DNA of 64,000 bases, from positions 115,609 through 179,608 of IMG/VR virus record IMGVR_UViG_3300020183_000007; one strand, given 5' to 3'. The notes below the pieces were generated by a model. That model was given only the letters and a program-made list of their open reading frames with translations, did no database searches and was not told where the DNA came from. Shown piece by piece: positions 8,845 to 31,699 of this stretch (position 1 is the stretch's first letter; each line of letters begins with the position of its first letter). The position numbers and the translations under genes were made by a program. This DNA is from a virus.

Positions 8845-8977
8845 TTATTTTTGCAATAGACAAACGGCCCGCTCAAAATTGTTGAAATTCTCTTTAGTTC
8901 AATCAAAGTTTTAAAACAAATTCATTTGAATTGCTTTCTCAAAACGAAATAATTATTCAAAAACGAAAGGAAAATTT

Positions 8978-9333: not shown

Positions 9334-9930
9334 ATGGCTTATGATCTAACTAAAATTAAAGAAGAATGTTTTATCATTGATGAAGAAATTAATATTATTC
9401 AAAATGTATTGATGGAAACTTCATCACGTGGAGCAAAATATCATCCAACAATAACCTTTTTTCAAGACGGTAAAACTCGTCAAGTAGCTGTTACGATACT
9501 ATCTCAACCTACTTTTAGTGAAACACTAATTCGTATTGCTGAAACGTTACATCTTTATCCATGTTTACGTTCTAGTTGTGCTGTCGTTTCTCTTGATTCT
9601 ACTATTCAAAATACTGATAATCAGTCTTTTGATTGTCTGCAAATTTTTCTAATTTCTGAATATCAAGGTTATATTATACAGCTTCCTTATACTAAGAATC
9701 AAGATAATACTATTCTTTGGCATACTGATCAATTTCAAACTGAAAATCTTTTATCCACAAATTTTGATGGTTTGACCAAAGATATGATTAATCTTTTTTT
9801 TACGTTTACCCATCTAAACGCTCCCACCTATACGGCCCACGAATGTTTATCTTATCTTAGTTATTCTGGGGCAGGTATAGCAGTTTTTGATTCCTTGAAA
9901 ATTGCATATTACGATGCAGTTTATCAATAA
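9334..9930 (+). CDS. hypothetical protein
   Basis: 198-aa ORF directly after the previous gene. Confidence 0.55.
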   Translation: MAYDLTKIKEECFIIDEEINIIQNVLMETSSRGAKYHPTITFFQDGKTRQVAVTILSQPTFSETLIRIAETLHLYPCLRSSCAVVSLDSTIQNTDNQSFDCLQIFLISEYQGYIIQLPYTKNQDNTILWHTDQFQTENLLSTNFDGLTKDMINLFFTFTHLNAPTYTAHECLSYLSYSGAGIAVFDSLKIAYYDAVYQ

Positions 9931-9954
9931 TATAAACAAATAATATATAAGAAC

Positions 9955-10002
9955 AATTAGTAACATCCTTAGGGAATGAATCAAAAAAGACGATTACTAA
10001 CG
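9955..10002 (+). repeat. orphan TIGR-type unit
   Basis: AATTAGTAACA-tccttagg-GAATGAATCA-aaaaagac-GATTACTAACG: same repeats and 8-nt spacing as the main array. Confidence 0.85.
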
Positions 10003-10201
10003 ATGCAGTAAGTGCTATGGAAAATAAAAATATTAAATATATTGCTGCCAAAAAGTGCAGTGCAACAAAATATCAAATTCCTCATATAATAAAATCATAT
10101 GTTATTATAGATCAGGAATTTGAAAATCGGATTAAAGATCTAATGGAATCCGAATATTATTTAACGGAATTAGAATTTAGTTGAACTGTAGGAAAAACAA
10201 T

Positions 10202-11875
10202 ATGTTGCAACTTAGACCATATCAGCAAGAAGCATTGAATTCTATTGTTTCTTTTGCTGATAAAGGAATAGTTCGTCAGCTTGTTGTTCTTCCTACTGGT
10301 TCAGGTAAAACTGTTATCTTTTCCCATCTTCCGCAGTTCAAACAAAAAAGCCTCCCTATGCTTGTTTTGGCCCATAGAGAAGAGCTTCTTCACCAAGCTA
10401 AAGATAAAATAGCCTGGTCCAATCCTGATATTTCTATTGAAATTGAACAAGGTGATAATCATGCGGGATACTCCGATGTCGTTATAGCTAGTGTGCCTAC
10501 TCTTGGTAGATCTCAGTCTACGCGCATAGAAAAATATTCTAGAGATTATTTTAAATCTATAATTATTGATGAAGCTCATCACGCTGCAGCTCCATCGTAT
10601 AGACGTATTATAGATTATTTTTCTCCAGAATTTATTCTTGGTGTAACTGCTACGCCTCAGCGTAGTGACAATGTTAGGCTTACCGATATTTTTCATGAAA
10701 TAGTTTATTATAAAACTATTCAAGATTTAATTGAAGACGGATACCTATCTCCTTTGATAGGATATAGAGTCCAAACCCAAACAGATATTTCAGGAGTAGA
10801 AACAAATGACGGAGACTACGTTCAATCCCAACTTCAAGATGTTATTGATAATCCTAATCGTAATGCTACCATTGTTGCTGCTTATAATGATTTGGTTCCT
10901 AATGCGAAAGCCATTGTTTTCGCTGCCGGCATTCAGCACGCAAACAACCTGGCCTTATCCTTTGGGCAAGCGAAAATAGCTACAGAGGTAATCTTAGGTG
11001 ATACTGACTCAGATGCTCGTAGAGATATTTTGGCGCGTTTTGCTAGCGGTCAAACACGTGTTCTCATCAATGTCGGCGTACTTACGGAAGGATTCGACGA
11101 ACCTTCCGTAGAAGCAATTTTACTTGCTAGACCTACCCGCTCTACATTGTTGTATACTCAAATTGTAGGCAGAGGTACTAGAATTTATGAAGGAAAACCA
11201 CATTGTGCAATTTTAGATTTCGCTGATACCACGAGGGGCAAAAAACCAATTGGTTTACCTTCCCTCCTCGGTCTTCCACCAGATTTTGATCTACAAGGTC
11301 AATCTCTTACAGATGTTGCAACTAAATATAAAGAGCTTGAAGATTATTGCCCTGGTGAAGCTGTACGTGTTTTATATCCTAATGATATAGAACTTGCGTA
11401 TAAACGCATTGATCTTTTTATGCCACCTCCTCCCAATGAGTTTGTTCAACAATATTCTAAATTTGTTTGGGCTGAAGTAGCAGAAAATGATTATCATCTT
11501 GGTGTAGATAATTATAATTCTCTCAGAATTTATATTGATACATTAGGTAGGTGGACTGTTGAGCATAGACTTCGTAATTCTCATGAATTGAAAGTAACTC
11601 TTCTCGGTCACCCAGAAGATATGCGAGACGCTTTTGTTCGTAGTGACAAATGGATTATGAAAAGATTTGATACTAAACTCATTAATTCTGATGCAGCCTG
11701 GAGATCTGATGGCCCAACTGATGCGCAAAGAAAACTTCTTAAGCGCATTGGTGTACCTATTACCTCAGATATGACTAAAGGCACAGCTTCTCAAATTATT
11801 AGTAAATATTATGAATCCAATCCTCGCCCTGCGTGGCTGAATAATAAAATCAAATATTCACGATCTAAGTGGTAA
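10202..11875 (+). CDS. superfamily 2 (DEAD/DEAH, ResIII-like) helicase
   Basis: LRPYQ, PTGSGKT, DEAHH, TATP, LTEGFDEP, QIVGRGTR motifs. Confidence 0.92.
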   Translation: MLQLRPYQQEALNSIVSFADKGIVRQLVVLPTGSGKTVIFSHLPQFKQKSLPMLVLAHREELLHQAKDKIAWSNPDISIEIEQGDNHAGYSDVVIASVPTLGRSQSTRIEKYSRDYFKSIIIDEAHHAAAPSYRRIIDYFSPEFILGVTATPQRSDNVRLTDIFHEIVYYKTIQDLIEDGYLSPLIGYRVQTQTDISGVETNDGDYVQSQLQDVIDNPNRNATIVAAYNDLVPNAKAIVFAAGIQHANNLALSFGQAKIATEVILGDTDSDARRDILARFASGQTRVLINVGVLTEGFDEPSVEAILLARPTRSTLLYTQIVGRGTRIYEGKPHCAILDFADTTRGKKPIGLPSLLGLPPDFDLQGQSLTDVATKYKELEDYCPGEAVRVLYPNDIELAYKRIDLFMPPPPNEFVQQYSKFVWAEVAENDYHLGVDNYNSLRIYIDTLGRWTVEHRLRNSHELKVTLLGHPEDMRDAFVRSDKWIMKRFDTKLINSDAAWRSDGPTDAQRKLLKRIGVPITSDMTKGTASQIISKYYESNPRPAWLNNKIKYSRSKW

Positions 11876-11884
11876 TCTGATATA

Positions 11885-12367
11885 ATGGAACCCATGTCAA
11901 AATCTGTAAATTATTATTCTCGTCAAGTAAAAAACCCTTATACTGATTATCATTTTATTGATGATACTCTCAGTAACAATGATATTTCTTTTTTATCTGC
12001 TACTACTAAGATTGCTACAACGTCCCAATATCGTTTCCGCATTGCTGCTATGATTGTCAAATCCGGTAGAGTATTGGGCGCTGATGTTAATGTTCCTAAA
12101 ATATCACCAAGTACACCCCCTAACAGAGTGAGCACTCATGCGGAAATTCGCGTTCTCAAAAACACACGTAACGTACGAGGAGCGACTTTGTATGTTGCTC
12201 GTTTACGTTCAGAGAATATTCCTGCTTTAGCAAGACCATGTTCTTGGTGCATGCAACAAATTGCTAAAGCAGGAATATCGCGAGTTGTTTTTACAACCAA
12301 TGATGGCGTAGGTTCTTCCTTTTATACCGATATGATTACTTGGAAGAATCTTTCTTATGATTCTTAA
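11885..12367 (+). CDS. cytidine/dCMP deaminase-like zinc enzyme
   Basis: HAE ... PCxxC (HAEIRVL, RPCSWC). Confidence 0.85.
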   Translation: MEPMSKSVNYYSRQVKNPYTDYHFIDDTLSNNDISFLSATTKIATTSQYRFRIAAMIVKSGRVLGADVNVPKISPSTPPNRVSTHAEIRVLKNTRNVRGATLYVARLRSENIPALARPCSWCMQQIAKAGISRVVFTTNDGVGSSFYTDMITWKNLSYDS

Positions 12368-13234: not shown

Positions 13235-13255
13235 AATAAGGGTTTCAAGGGTCTT

Positions 13256-13328
13256 GGGCCTGTAGCCCAACGGCAGAGGCAGAGGACTTAAAATCCTTCC
13301 AGTGTGGGTTCGAAACCCACCAGGCCCA
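13256..13328 (+). tRNA. tRNA-Leu(UAA), short variable arm
   Basis: GGGCCTG/CAGGCCC acceptor; GAGGA-CT TAA AA-TCCTT anticodon arm; GTGGG-TTCGAAA-CCCAC T arm. Confidence 0.93.
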
Positions 13329-13330
13329 CA

Positions 13331-13368
13331 GGATGGCAGGTTTCTACTCCTTCGGAAACCTGTCATCC
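13331..13368 (+). other. 14-bp hairpin between two tRNAs
   Basis: GGATGGCAGGTTTC-loop-GAAACCTGTCATCC. Confidence 0.6.
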
Positions 13369-13372
13369 GCCT

Positions 13373-13445
13373 GCCTCTTTAGCTCAGTTGGTAGAGCAGT
13401 GGACTTTTAATCCATTGGTCGCAGGTTCAAATCCTGCAGGAGGCA
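13373..13445 (+). tRNA. tRNA-Lys(UUU)
   Basis: Canonical cloverleaf, anticodon loop CT TTT AA. Confidence 0.95.
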
Positions 13446-13447
13446 CT

Positions 13448-13627
13448 ATGAAACCTAAACAATTTATTGATTTACCAGAAAATAAACAAAAAATGCTAAT
13501 TAAAAAAGCTTTTGATTATTTATGTCAAGAAGGTCTTGTCCCTTATGGTGTACAAACCGGTGATGATTGTACTTGGGACACTTATGATCCAGCTGTTGAA
13601 TTAGCAGCAGAATGGTATGAAGAATAG
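13448..13627 (+). CDS. small hypothetical protein
   Basis: ATG at 13448 directly after tRNA-Lys. Confidence 0.45.
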   Translation: MKPKQFIDLPENKQKMLIKKAFDYLCQEGLVPYGVQTGDDCTWDTYDPAVELAAEWYEE

Positions 13628-13638
13628 GAGTTATTCTT

Positions 13639-13842
13639 ATGAAAGTTAAAGTTAATTTAGATCTTGTTATGCATATTCCTGGTGAATTCCAAGATGATGA
13701 TTTAGCTGTCAAGCTTATTGATAGAGTTCTTCGTGACCAACTTTATGTTGGAGTAGAGTTTGATGATAATGATATGGACGATGTTCTTCCTGTTGAAGAA
13801 CTTCACATTAGAATGTATAAACCATTAGCAGGGAAACTTTAA
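13639..13842 (+). CDS. small acidic hypothetical protein
   Basis: AGGAG RBS. Confidence 0.55.
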   Translation: MKVKVNLDLVMHIPGEFQDDDLAVKLIDRVLRDQLYVGVEFDDNDMDDVLPVEELHIRMYKPLAGKL

Positions 13843-13872
13843 TTACATACAGAGACATGGAAATCGTATATT

Positions 13873-13946
13873 GGGGCGGTAGCTCAGTTGGTTAGAGCAG
13901 GGGACTCATAATCCCTGGGTCGCGGGTTCAATTCCTGCCCGCCCCA
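13873..13946 (+). tRNA. tRNA with CAU anticodon (elongator Met or lysidine-Ile2)
   Basis: GGGGCGG/CCGCCCC acceptor (G1-C72, so not initiator); loop CT CAT AA. Confidence 0.92.
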
Positions 13947-14439
13947 CTGAATGCTGTCGCAATTAAACATAAACTTGATATAGATTAATTTCATACCGAG
14001 ATACGAAATCTATTATCATGCGCAATCAATTTCATAACGCGTTGCTTAAATTGTAACAGAATTTATAATTTTGGAAACATAATCAATCATGAGTTGACTG
14101 GTACTGTTGCATACAATAGTACCAACAAATGAAATTAATAGTTCATTAGATAACTCAAAGTGAATCTATTATTCAATAGGTCAAACTAGGGTATTGTATT
14201 ATATTTCCTGGCTATTACACAATACGTAAAATTTTTTATAGACACGAAAGGCACCGTGGGTGAAGTAGTGTCTATAAAAACCTGTAGTGTTTGTTGTAAT
14301 AGTCAAAAACTAGGAGATAAAATGTCACTTGCTAAATTTAGAAAAGTATTTAAAGGTCATAAAAAACCTGATCCTCCTTCAACTAAGGTTTTTCCTGAAA
14401 ATACTGATCAAAAAAAACAAGGTGACAAATAGTCTCCTA

Positions 14440-14514
14440 GCCGAATTAGCTCAGTGGTAGAGCAACCGCCTTGTAAGCGGTAGGTCCTCAGTTCAATCCT
14501 GAGATTCGGCTCCA
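14440..14514 (+). tRNA. tRNA-Thr(UGU), CCA encoded
   Basis: GCCGAAT/ATTCGGC acceptor; loop CT TGT AA; 3' TCCA. Confidence 0.95.
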
Positions 14515-14631
14515 TGACAGTAGCCAATTTGCCTCAGTTCCCATAACTGGGGGGACGTGAAATCGTGTATAATGTTGGTGGACCCATATCTCCTCACGAC
14601 TACTGTCACCTTATTTTGAAAGGTTAATAAA

Positions 14632-15054
14632 ATGAAGAAAATTATTTTTTTTACTCTTCTTTTAGTTTCTTGTATTTTTACTGCTTCTTGCGGTGCTAAC
14701 AAATCTACAGATGAAACAATGCCACCTCTCACTACTGATCTGGATCGTGCATCTGATCAAACTGTCCTAATAACACAACCAATTATAACTTCTCCGTGGA
14801 CTCATCGCAATGAAGCTTATTTAGATTATGTTTGGCAAAACGCCGATGTTCCTATCAGTGTTCTTGACTTTAATCTTATGAGCTATGCAGAAATATGGTG
14901 CGATTTTATGCGTCGTGGAATGTCAAAAACTAATCTTCTTAATTGGATAAATGAAATGGCAACAGATCAAGAAGAAATTGATCTATGGCTTGTTACTGCT
15001 GAAGCTTCATCAATATTTGTTTGTTCTGATCAAGGATACAAATGGAATCCTTAA
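14632..15054 (+). CDS. putative lipoprotein
   Basis: MKK + hydrophobic stretch + FTASC lipobox-like motif. Confidence 0.6.
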   Translation: MKKIIFFTLLLVSCIFTASCGANKSTDETMPPLTTDLDRASDQTVLITQPIITSPWTHRNEAYLDYVWQNADVPISVLDFNLMSYAEIWCDFMRRGMSKTNLLNWINEMATDQEEIDLWLVTAEASSIFVCSDQGYKWNP

Positions 15055-15508
15055 TCGAATCAACCCGCTATAAACGAACCATTTCTTGGTTAGCTAACTA
15101 TATCAAAACTAATCCTAACGCTGATATGCATTTTCGTACTATTTGTTCTGTTCTCAGACAAGAAAAAAATTATTATATTAAGTGTGTATTGTTAGACAAT
15201 AAATATTTATACGGTTCATTTTTGGCTGCAGCTAGGGAAAGTATTAAAGAATGATTATTGTTACGGACAATCCAAATCACGCTGCAATCCTTTCTCATCG
15301 TAAGCCTGGTTATTTAGTTATGAAAGATAATTCTGTTATTAAATTTGACGAACTTTTATATTTTAATGACAATACAGAATGGATTGACCAGCAACCACCT
15401 TTTTATTATTATTGGAATAAAGCTGAAAATTTTCGTTCTGGAGTTTCTGTTTCCAATGTTCGATATATCTACTTTAAAGATGATCGAATATCCGAGGCTA
15501 GCATATAA
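15042..15508 (+). CDS. two small overlapping hypothetical proteins (15042-15254, 15251-15508)
   Basis: Consecutive + strand ORFs with overlapping stop/start codons. Confidence 0.45.
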
Positions 15509-15519
15509 ATTATTTGCTA

Positions 15520-15591
15520 GCCCTCGTCGTCTACTGGTTAAGACCCGACTCTTATAAAGTCGTTAAGGTGGTTCAATTCCACCCGGGGGTA
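15520..15591 (+). tRNA. tRNA-Ile(UAU)
   Basis: GCCCTCG/CGGGGGT acceptor; CGACT-CT TAT AA-AGTCG anticodon arm; GGTGG-TTCAATT-CCACC T arm. Confidence 0.85.
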
Positions 15592-15593
15592 CA

Positions 15594-15864: not shown

Positions 15865-16314
15865 ATGAATTCTAATCCTGTTTCCCGTAGAAGTTTGCCT
15901 AAAAATATTGCTGACATTTACGATTCTTTTACCGATTTAACTTCTAAATGGAGAGAAAATGCTTTATGTAAAAATAGCGTTCTTTCTATGGAAGATTTCT
16001 TTTCTATCAATAGTGATAAAAAATCTGTCTATTCAGCTTCAAAAGCTATATCAATGTGTAATTCTTGTCCCGTTCAAGTTGAATGCCTACATGAATCTAT
16101 GAAATATAATTACGATGGCGTTTGGGGTGGGACACTATATCGTCAACGTATATATTTCATTAGAAACTATCTCAATAATGATCTTGCTAATCTGACTATG
16201 GAAAAAGCTAAAGAGTTCGTTCAAATGGCCAAAATCCAAAATCTTACACTTTTTAAAATTAAACGTAAATATCGCAGAAAGGCTGTACAGAAAGATGACT
16301 TACTTTCGCAATGA
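15865..16314 (+). CDS. whiB: WhiB-family Fe-S transcription factor
   Basis: WRENALC...FF...MCNSCPVQVECL...GVWGGT...QR. Confidence 0.88.
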   Translation: MNSNPVSRRSLPKNIADIYDSFTDLTSKWRENALCKNSVLSMEDFFSINSDKKSVYSASKAISMCNSCPVQVECLHESMKYNYDGVWGGTLYRQRIYFIRNYLNNDLANLTMEKAKEFVQMAKIQNLTLFKIKRKYRRKAVQKDDLLSQ

Positions 16315-30965: not shown

Positions 30966-31699
30966 TGGAAGATTTCGATGAGCTAGATCTTCAAAAGCTT
31001 ATCGAAAGTGCATTAGCCCAAAATCCAAATCAACATCCATTTGGGGGCTCGGAAACGTATCTCGGACTTGCTGAAACAGATATTTTATCTACGATTTATT
31101 CTCGTTTAGAAAATAAATTGACAATATCTGAAATAACTCAATTATTTCATAATATTCGTGTAGATATTTTGTCTAGAAAAATTTCTACAAATATTAGAGA
31201 TCTTCATACAGTTACTAAAAATTGTAGAAGATGCAATATTGATTCTGCCCCTGAGCTTCCAAAATGGAATGTTGAAAATCCAGATGTCGCTATAGTTATA
31301 GATTCTCCATCTATTTCTTCTGAAGCAGTTACTTTAATGATTAATGCCTTCAAAGATTCTGGATTTTCTTCAAATCAATTATGTTTAACATATGTCAACA
31401 GATGTCCTCTCAAAAGAAAGTATGATGAACAAGAAATTATTAATTGTTCTCCATATCTTCATTTAGAACTTCAACTGTTAAATCCTAAGTTGATTTTGTG
31501 TCTTGGTGCTACGCCCGCTTCTATTCTTTTTGGTTCTCCAATAAAAATCAAAGAGTTAAGAGGAAAAATTAACTGGTTAGGTTACTGGCCAATACTTGTA
31601 ACGTATTCTCCAATGTATATACTAAAGTCTGGTGGGACTACACCGGAACATTTTTCTATTGACATAAAACAAGCTTATGATTTTATTCATAAGCGGTAA
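30965..31699 (+). CDS. uracil-DNA glycosylase family 4-like protein
   Basis: CRRC...VNRCP...CSPYLHLELQLLNPKLILCLGATPA...LRG...TYSP. Confidence 0.8.
   Translation: MEDFDELDLQKLIESALAQNPNQHPFGGSETYLGLAETDILSTIYSRLENKLTISEITQLFHNIRVDILSRKISTNIRDLHTVTKNCRRCNIDSAPELPKWNVENPDVAIVIDSPSISSEAVTLMINAFKDSGFSSNQLCLTYVNRCPLKRKYDEQEIINCSPYLHLELQLLNPKLILCLGATPASILFGSPIKIKELRGKINWLGYWPILVTYSPMYILKSGGTTPEHFSIDIKQAYDFIHKR

Follow-up and report, generated by a model that had tools for sequence, protein, structure and literature searches.

The window analysed here (64,000 nucleotides, the final 64 kb of a 179.6-kb phage record in IMG/VR) contains a TIGR array with its tas gene and, 3.4 kb away, a solitary unit of array type that carries two spacers of its own and is termed the orphan below. 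The orphan is best explained as a recent ectopic copy of approximately 1.3–2 array periods, inserted directly upstream of the start codon of the small conserved gene o10017; the copy would be transcribed in the sense direction and then bound and cut by the phage's own Tas protein, TasA. We give this explanation as a whole about an even chance. The features on which the argument draws are listed in table 1.

Table 1. Features of the TIGR-Tas locus and of the orphan region, in window coordinates.
Feature	Coordinates	Strand	Description
tasA	5099–6028	+	309-aa Nop-domain Tas protein; processing dyad Y290/H297
Hairpin and TATAAT box	6045–6104	+	hairpin 3′ of tasA; TATAAT at 6099–6104, directly 5′ of the array
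Main dual-repeat TIGR array	6113–6525	+	11 units, period 37; starts with half-edge AATCA, ends with a degenerate edge
o9334	9334–9930	+	198 aa, no known family; syntenic homologues in all relatives; 3′ end holds direct-repeat copy 1
Direct-repeat copy 1	9908–9920	+	ACGATGCAGT at 9911–9920, preceded by ATTAC; ancestral coding sequence
Inserted block	9945–10016	+	72 nt, this phage lineage only; boundaries uncertain by about 3 nt; ends at the o10017 ATG
Loop-repeat copy 1 (loop 1)	9955–9965	+	perfect match to the array form AATTAGTAACA
Spacer TCCTTAGG	9966–9973	+	spacer-B position (after loop repeat)
Edge repeat GAATGAATCA	9974–9983	+	perfect match; predicted TasA cut between 9978 and 9979
Spacer AAAAAGAC	9984–9991	+	spacer-A position (after edge repeat)
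Loop-repeat copy 2 (loop′)	9992–10002	+	two deviations from consensus: C at 9997, G at 10002
Direct-repeat copy 2	10000–10009	+	within the inserted block; overlaps the end of loop′
o10017	10017–10184	+	small conserved gene, 55 aa; followed by the helicase gene (ATG at 10204, end at 11875)

Dual-repeat TIGR systems are built on arrays in which two short repeats alternate, separated by spacers of 8–12 nt, with a period of about 36 nt (Faure et al. 2025, PMC12045711). The locus at 5099–6525 reads as an ordinary dual-repeat TIGR-TasA locus as defined in that study, combining a Nop-domain Tas protein and its Tyr/His dyad with alternating repeats and half-edge termini. TasA matches the TaTasR structure 9mty at 1e-10 and the SpTasH structures at 1e-9 (phmmer), and the SpTasH coding sequence (the TasH gene of a Salicola phage) at 4e-13 (BLASTP). 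Its C-terminal motif RPY-x6-H places Y290 and H297, seven residues apart, in alignment with the SpTasH processing residues Y289 and H296 and in a like context; a Pfam search of TasA found no nuclease domain. The hairpin that follows tasA has a fold energy of −34.9 kcal/mol (z = −7.7), and the TATAAT box beyond it is presumably the promoter of the array, the leader of which is kept in the related contigs L011, L012 and L013. In the array itself, a 10-nt edge repeat, an 11-nt loop repeat and two 8-nt spacers make up the period of 37. Neither the array nor the orphan is matched by an Rfam family. Across 10 strain-level contigs from different samples the main array has no SNPs or indels, while its flanking DNA has 6 polymorphic sites in 3.3 kb, and spacer turnover has left no sign on the strain-level time scale. 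The sixth unit of the array (6303–6339) has spacers that are partly reverse-complementary to each other, spacer A ACAAACAT and spacer B TGATGTTT, which share ATGTTT in this way, so that the target would be near-palindromic.

How the orphan is to be read depends on which of the two repeats is the edge, cut during processing, and which is the loop. The benchmark is SpTasH, for which synthetic mature tigRNAs have the form AGCCA-8 nt-AAGACAACCA-8 nt-AAGCG (Faure et al. 2025, supplement, PMC12045711); because the mature guides run from AGCCA through 8 nt, the loop and another 8 nt to AAGCG, the Sp edge repeat AAGCG/AGCCA must be cut in its middle (at the slash). The Sp array opens with a bare half-edge, AGTCA, and a truncated edge runs into its terminator. 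In the arrays of the window, L011, L012 and L015, the leader likewise ends in a half-edge, AATCA, placed exactly 8 nt before the first ATTAGTAACA-type repeat, and the arrays terminate in half-edges of the AATG or AGTG type. The repeat GAATGAATCA is 10 nt long, has a central G/A step like the Sp edge and allows the same two pairs (A3–U8 and U4–A7). Edge-repeat positions 2–8 and 10 are invariant in 61 units, whereas the loop repeat varies at five positions and in length (11–12 nt). On the strength of the SpTasH benchmark, the array termini, the features of GAATGAATCA and the invariance of one repeat against the variability of the other, GAATG/AATCA is assigned as the edge repeat cut by Tas and RATTAGTAACA as the loop repeat. 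The preliminary description of this DNA had taken ATTAGTAACA as the flanking (edge) repeat, which would make the orphan a complete unit; that assignment is ruled out by the SpTasH array, the synthetic mature tigRNAs and the array termini in five phages. ATTAGTAACA is the loop repeat, and the orphan is centred on an edge repeat.

With an edge repeat at its centre and loop repeats on its flanks, the orphan therefore has the order loop–spacer B–edge–spacer A–loop′ and is shifted by half a period relative to a canonical guide. Its letters at 9955–10002, the array repeats and the 8-nt spacing are exactly as first described, and it is a genuine array-type unit with new spacers. The succession of loop, 8 nt and edge has no mismatch over 20 specified bases, a pattern that otherwise matches only 10 units of the main array and for which about 0.04 matches would be expected by chance at three or fewer mismatches. 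The succession of edge, 8 nt and loop′ has 2 mismatches, against 0.02 such matches expected by chance, and the orphan core is perfect at 31 of 31 bases in loop 1, the edge and the inner half of loop′. Among the loops of the arrays, C stands at loop position 6 in 1 of 54 and G at position 11 in none of 54; bases 9994–10000 of loop′ are the exact reverse complement of bases 9957–9963 of loop 1. The spacers TCCTTAGG and AAAAAGAC are absent from the main array, as had been noted, and do not occur in repeat context in any IMG/VR viral contig; in a search for a donor array among some 90 units of the relatives' arrays, no spacer matched those of the orphan at more than 6 of 8 positions. When the full 179.6-kb record was scanned for further repeat pairs, the orphan proved to be the sole copy outside the main array. 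Where a canonical guide would have its outer half-edges, the orphan has AATAT (9942–9946) and AAGTG (10010–10014), the latter after a 7-nt spacer and thus one base off register. Each matches at only 3 of 5 bases. The suggestion that the orphan is a dispersed single-guide cassette of canonical form is therefore not borne out when it is set against the SpTasH benchmark and the array termini.

Comparison with relatives shows that the orphan lies in a lineage-specific insertion. The conserved gene order among related phages is o2350, (tas and array), o6559, ..., o8978, o9334, o10017 and helicase. Between o9334 and o10017 the window has a gap of 86 nt; the corresponding gap is 14 nt in the L043/L094 phage and in G003, 18 nt in G001 and G002, and 0 nt in L011, and it is similarly short in about 15 more distant contigs, from which the block is absent. 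The first 14 nt or so after the o9334 stop codon are common to the window, L043 and G003, and the length of the block, 72 nt, is close to two array periods. When the relatives are ordered by the identity of their helicase to that of the window (91% for L043/L094, 90% for G003, 86% for G001/G002 and 80% for L011), a single gain of the block on the branch of the window is the parsimonious reading. An empty-site allele, of the kind that the preliminary description had linked to insertion, is thus present in about 20 related phages, including the closest (L043/L094). Some of these relatives have no TIGR system at all: in G003 and the L043/L094 phage, tas and the array are missing and o2350 is directly followed by o6559. 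In G001, G002 and L011, tas is present and the arrays share the repeats of the window, yet there is no orphan. No further orphan units were found in the phage's own genome or in G001–G007, and since none occurs in the relatives with tas and arrays or in G004–G007, the orphan is an isolated event in a phage possessing the cognate system. No transposase or integrase was found near the orphan, and annotated phage records gave no DNA match.

Two further observations concern these relatives. The tas and array cassette as a whole (about 1.5 kb; 4989–6558 in the window) is present or absent at one fixed site, between the terminator of o2350 and o6559: the window, G001, G002 and L011 have it, whereas G003 (L032) and the L043/L094 phage (L094 4331–4422) keep just an intergenic gap of about 90–110 nt. 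If the stop codon is included, the 18-nt gap of the G001/G002 lineage (L009 6587–6610; also L010, L035, L036, L050 and L053) has a loop-like part (9/10), 4 nt and an edge-like part (8/10). This was considered as a possible eroded remnant, but is more likely an AT-rich coincidence, the loop-like part being a conserved stop-codon context and L043 and G003 being without it; the resemblance could be coincidence, or junction microhomology to array repeats.

The 10-bp sequence ACGATGCAGT occurs exactly twice in the genome, at the two places named in the preliminary description, 9911–9920 and 10000–10009. A direct repeat of at least 10 nt in comparable geometry is found around 0.3% of random 48-nt windows of the genome (empirical p ~0.003), a geometry chosen post hoc, so that the true significance is perhaps 0.01–0.02. 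The repeat has a gapped extension, in which ATTAC followed by GATGCAGT (9908–9920) corresponds to ATTAC-TAAC-GATGCAGT (9993–10009) with a 4-nt insertion, and both deviations of loop′ (C9997 and G10002) are the bases of the o9334 copy. In L043, which has no insertion, the identical 10-mer is found once, at the homologous codons of o9334, and G003 matches it at 8 of 10 positions. In the empty allele of L043/L094, this single copy precedes the gene tail, the stop codon and the 14-nt gap, and the window has kept these three. Since the empty allele keeps the sequence that follows the repeat, the block entered some 25–35 nt 3′ of copy 1, and the insert includes copy 2. A target-site duplication would not leave the roughly 25 nt that L043/L094 keeps after its single copy. 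Of the proposal that the orphan is a trace of how units are inserted, the lineage-specific insertion of an ectopically placed unit therefore stands, whereas the repeat does not represent a duplication scar and is put down to junction filler or to chance. Template switching that copied a few nearby bases into the junction would fit both the extended repeat and the deviations of loop′, on the evidence of one junction at which chance could have produced the same. The second ACGATGCAGT would then be a short stretch at the right-hand junction that was templated from nearby sequence, and illegitimate, copy-choice or template-switch recombination would be a more likely origin than cut-and-paste mobility, a mechanism suggested by this single junction with no array among those searched found to donate the orphan spacers.

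The filled allele is fixed in this phage population. Exact copies of the o10017 and o9334 proteins are encoded on at least 23 contigs, and the block is carried by all 14 distinct contigs retrieved, from 14 samples, which are 99.6–99.97% identical to the window. These have 16 polymorphic sites in 3.85 kb, 3 of them within the 86-nt gap (Poisson p ~0.006). Relaxed constraint could explain this excess of SNPs in the gap and would be an argument for neutrality. None of the 14 contigs differs in the three repeat cores or the two central spacers; population diversity is so low that this would be expected anyway, with 0.19 SNPs expected over the 46 nt. The gap SNPs themselves lie at 9951 and 9954, just 5′ of loop 1, and at 9992, the variable first base of loop′. 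They are linked, within 42 nt, and one contig (L072) has an intermediate haplotype.

The block is sense-oriented in a tightly packed run of plus-strand genes (o8978, o9334, o10017 and helicase), and a scan for sigma-70 promoters and terminators found no promoter- or terminator-like site in 9900–10100. The block should for these reasons be transcribed as part of the mRNA of these genes. TasA would be expected to bind and cut this RNA, since a perfect edge lies between loop repeats as in the native array and the Tyr/His dyad is kept. By analogy with AAGCG/AGCCA of SpTasH, the cut would fall at GAAUG/AAUCA (9978/9979), severing the mRNA between o9334 and the o10017–helicase part and yielding non-canonical half-guides. 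One-unit arrays are processed when their edge repeats are full (Faure et al. 2025, PMC12045711). Against processing by TasA stands the orphan's one full edge, compared with two in the processed minimal arrays of that study, and TasA may bind less tightly on the loop′ side, where a G takes the place of an almost invariant A at the end of box C.

Two other accounts concern the DNA of the gap. In one, the orphan is a mobile single-unit cassette bracketed by a 10-bp target-site duplication, as the exact direct repeat (p ~0.003, as above) would lead one to expect; it is contradicted by the empty allele of L043, which puts copy 2 inside the insert and the site of insertion about 25–35 nt beyond copy 1. 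The cassette was not found again in the 180 kb of the phage or in seven related genomes, nor does a transposase or integrase lie nearby, and we regard this account as scarcely credible. The preliminary description also raised a regulatory site upstream of the helicase, that is, a promoter or operator acting at the DNA level on o10017 and helicase. The orphan lies 14 nt upstream of the o10017 start codon, and guided TasA-type proteins can repress transcription on DNA, but no sigma-70-like promoter is found in 9900–10020, the spacer pairs of the array have no match here or elsewhere in the genome, and the relatives express the same genes without an orphan. No promoter-like site having come to light, a regulatory role is very unlikely.

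More weight attaches to two accounts of the inserted unit itself. The orphan may be an inert scar, a neutral by-product of recombination that TasA leaves unbound or binds without consequence and that has not yet decayed, its 10-bp repeat and 7-bp complementarity being coincidental; we consider this rather improbable. It would account for a unit that occurs once, without a counterpart in G001, G002, G003 or G004–G007, and that is out of register with a canonical guide, for relatives that thrive with tas and arrays and no orphan, and for the enrichment of SNPs in the gap, in a population so young (16 SNPs in 3.85 kb) that its state of decay says little. It accords less well with a core perfect at all 31 bases, with fixation in 14 of 14 contigs across many samples and with a perfect edge set between loop repeats, which is the exact substrate type that Tas proteins process. 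Alternatively, the orphan may be a stand-alone trans guide in split or circularly permuted form, an unlikely reading, and slightly less likely again in its specific version of a natural split or permuted tigRNA embedded in the mRNA. TasA would here cut at 9978/9979 and the two fragments would be held together by a 7-bp helix of loop and loop′, made continuous by C9997, to give a two-piece guide with spacer A AAAAAGAC and spacer B UCCUUAGG. Such a guide would mimic a canonical tigRNA, running 5′ AAUCA–AAAAAGAC–opened loop–UCCUUAGG–GAAUG 3′, and its 16-bp target in the published geometry, in which, as in the TaTasR target oligos, spacer A on one strand is joined to the reverse complement of spacer B, would be AAAAAGAC followed by CCTAAGGA. 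The parts that a split guide would use are intact, namely box C of loop 1, both spacers, the full edge and box D of loop′, and both deviations fall in the dispensable outer part of loop′. The change from G to C at 9997, found in 1 of 54 array loops, is the one substitution that turns a near-palindromic loop core into a perfect 7-bp complement, but the gapped repeat shared with the tail of o9334 (ATTAC...G) explains it equally well. Across the 14 strain contigs the flanks vary and neither the repeats nor the two central spacers do, a constancy to be expected over 46 nt at so low a diversity (0.19 SNPs). In other Tas clades stem-loop tigRNAs are found at scattered positions, even within genes, but split or permuted dual-repeat tigRNAs have not been described. 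The predicted fold of the orphan is no stabler than that of shuffled sequence (z = −0.37). Dual-repeat tigRNAs usually have no intrinsic RNA structure. For the split guide, the genomes of the phage itself, G001 and G003 contain no target with at most one mismatch, and matches to its 16-mer in 185,579 species genomes are scattered over unrelated taxa, as by chance. Set against these alternatives, the array-derived insertion that is sense-transcribed and cut by TasA remains our preferred explanation.

Targets were sought more widely for the array and the orphan alike. For the 11 spacer pairs of the array and three possible pairs of the orphan, in both geometries and with gaps of 0–2 nt, the 180 kb of the phage contain no site with one mismatch or fewer, and two-mismatch matches are as frequent as in shuffled sequence. 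Nor does any spacer pair have such a site in the complete genomes of G001 and G003. The scan of the species genomes for host targets, made with the orphan 16-mer, gave at least 120 matches. Two one-mismatch matches of array spacers, at 5686–5703 in the tasA mRNA and at 31533–31550, were set aside because they pair the wrong spacers in a non-target geometry and lie in unrelated genes.

Several other features of the window are recorded here for context. At 7196–8638, 0.7 kb 3′ of the array, lie a ParB-like DUF6551 gene (340 aa) and a 129-aa ORF, which are shared with the tas-less L094 phage and absent from G001, G002, G003 and L011. The ParB-like gene recalls the association of tasA with tasParB (Faure et al. 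2025, PMC12045711), but in these phages ParB is also found without tas. It is followed, at 8640–8850, by a GC-richer non-coding stretch with a T-arm-like segment, GGTTCGACTCCATC, for which ARAGORN calls no tRNA and Rfam gives no match. Directly 3′ of the helicase, at 11885–12367, is a gene of the dCMP/cytidine deaminase family that is conserved in relatives, and five tRNA genes are encoded on the plus strand at 13256–15592 (Leu-taa, Lys-ttt, Met-cat, Thr-tgt and Ile-tat). A WhiB-family gene is found at 15865–16314, and L094 has both WhiB and DUF732 genes (14941–15390 and 13235–13705). The WhiB and DUF732 genes suggest an actinobacterial host; taken together with lake metagenome sources and a GC content of 38%, they make freshwater Actinobacteria the likely hosts.

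We know of no adaptation machinery for TIGR systems. The locus provides a dated natural example, if a single one, in which array-type units bearing new spacers have appeared ectopically. The origin and growth of TIGR arrays and their gain of spacers are explicitly left as an open question in both Faure et al. (2025, PMC12045711) and Xu et al. (2026, bioRxiv 10.64898/2026.09.09.750476). A fixed filled allele, clean empty alleles, a junction copy of 10–13 nt and no sign of a dedicated insertion mechanism together point to copy-choice recombination as one route by which units may move. If TasA does cut or load the orphan, this would be the first case of a Tas protein acting on the mRNA of its own phage, or the first non-canonical guide architecture, and would be relevant to guide design for compact Tas tools. 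Were the split guide to prove true, cleavage of a replication-operon transcript would be linked to the production of an extra guide, and dual-repeat Tas proteins would accept guides in which the loop repeat is opened into a helix.

A literature search found no paper on orphan TIGR units; the word 'orphan' is absent from Faure et al. (2025) and Xu et al. (2026), and 'solitary' from the latter. The closest known systems are compared here. With the dual-repeat TIGR-TasA systems (Faure et al. 2025, Science, PMC12045711; Xu et al. 2026), the orphan shares two alternating repeats and 8-nt spacers, those of the phage's own array, and the Tas protein of the phage is likewise of the Nop-domain type with a Tyr/His processing loop. 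It differs from them in being solitary, 3.4 kb from tas and the array in an unrelated operon gap, and in being edge-centred with no usable outer half-edges. Engineered minimal TIGR arrays offer a parallel, as a single unit is processed and loaded if its edge repeats are complete (Faure et al. 2025, Fig. 2 and fig. S6); those units run edge–A–loop–B–edge with two full edges, whereas the orphan runs loop–B–edge–A–loop′ with one. Other Tas clades have stem-loop tigRNAs, isolated units whose position is flexible and may even fall within coding sequences (Faure et al. 2025; Xu et al. 2026). In these, paired flanks close a succession of box C, spacer, central element, spacer and box D, and the loop and loop′ of the orphan can pair over 7 bp in the same topology. 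The helix of the orphan is, however, short, AU-rich and not thermodynamically distinctive, as its z-score indicates, and this TasA is of the dual-repeat type. Beyond TIGR systems, solitary CRISPR repeat units, which act as RNA anti-CRISPRs (Racrs), are likewise lone repeat-derived elements in a phage genome, remote from any array, and like the orphan could bind a cognate effector (Camara-Wilpert et al. 2023, Nature, PMC10651486). Racrs mimic the CRISPR repeats of the host and disable host Cas proteins, whereas the orphan has the repeats of the phage's own Tas system and two spacers; it is conceivable that it serves as a decoy against the TasA of co-infecting relatives with the same repeats.
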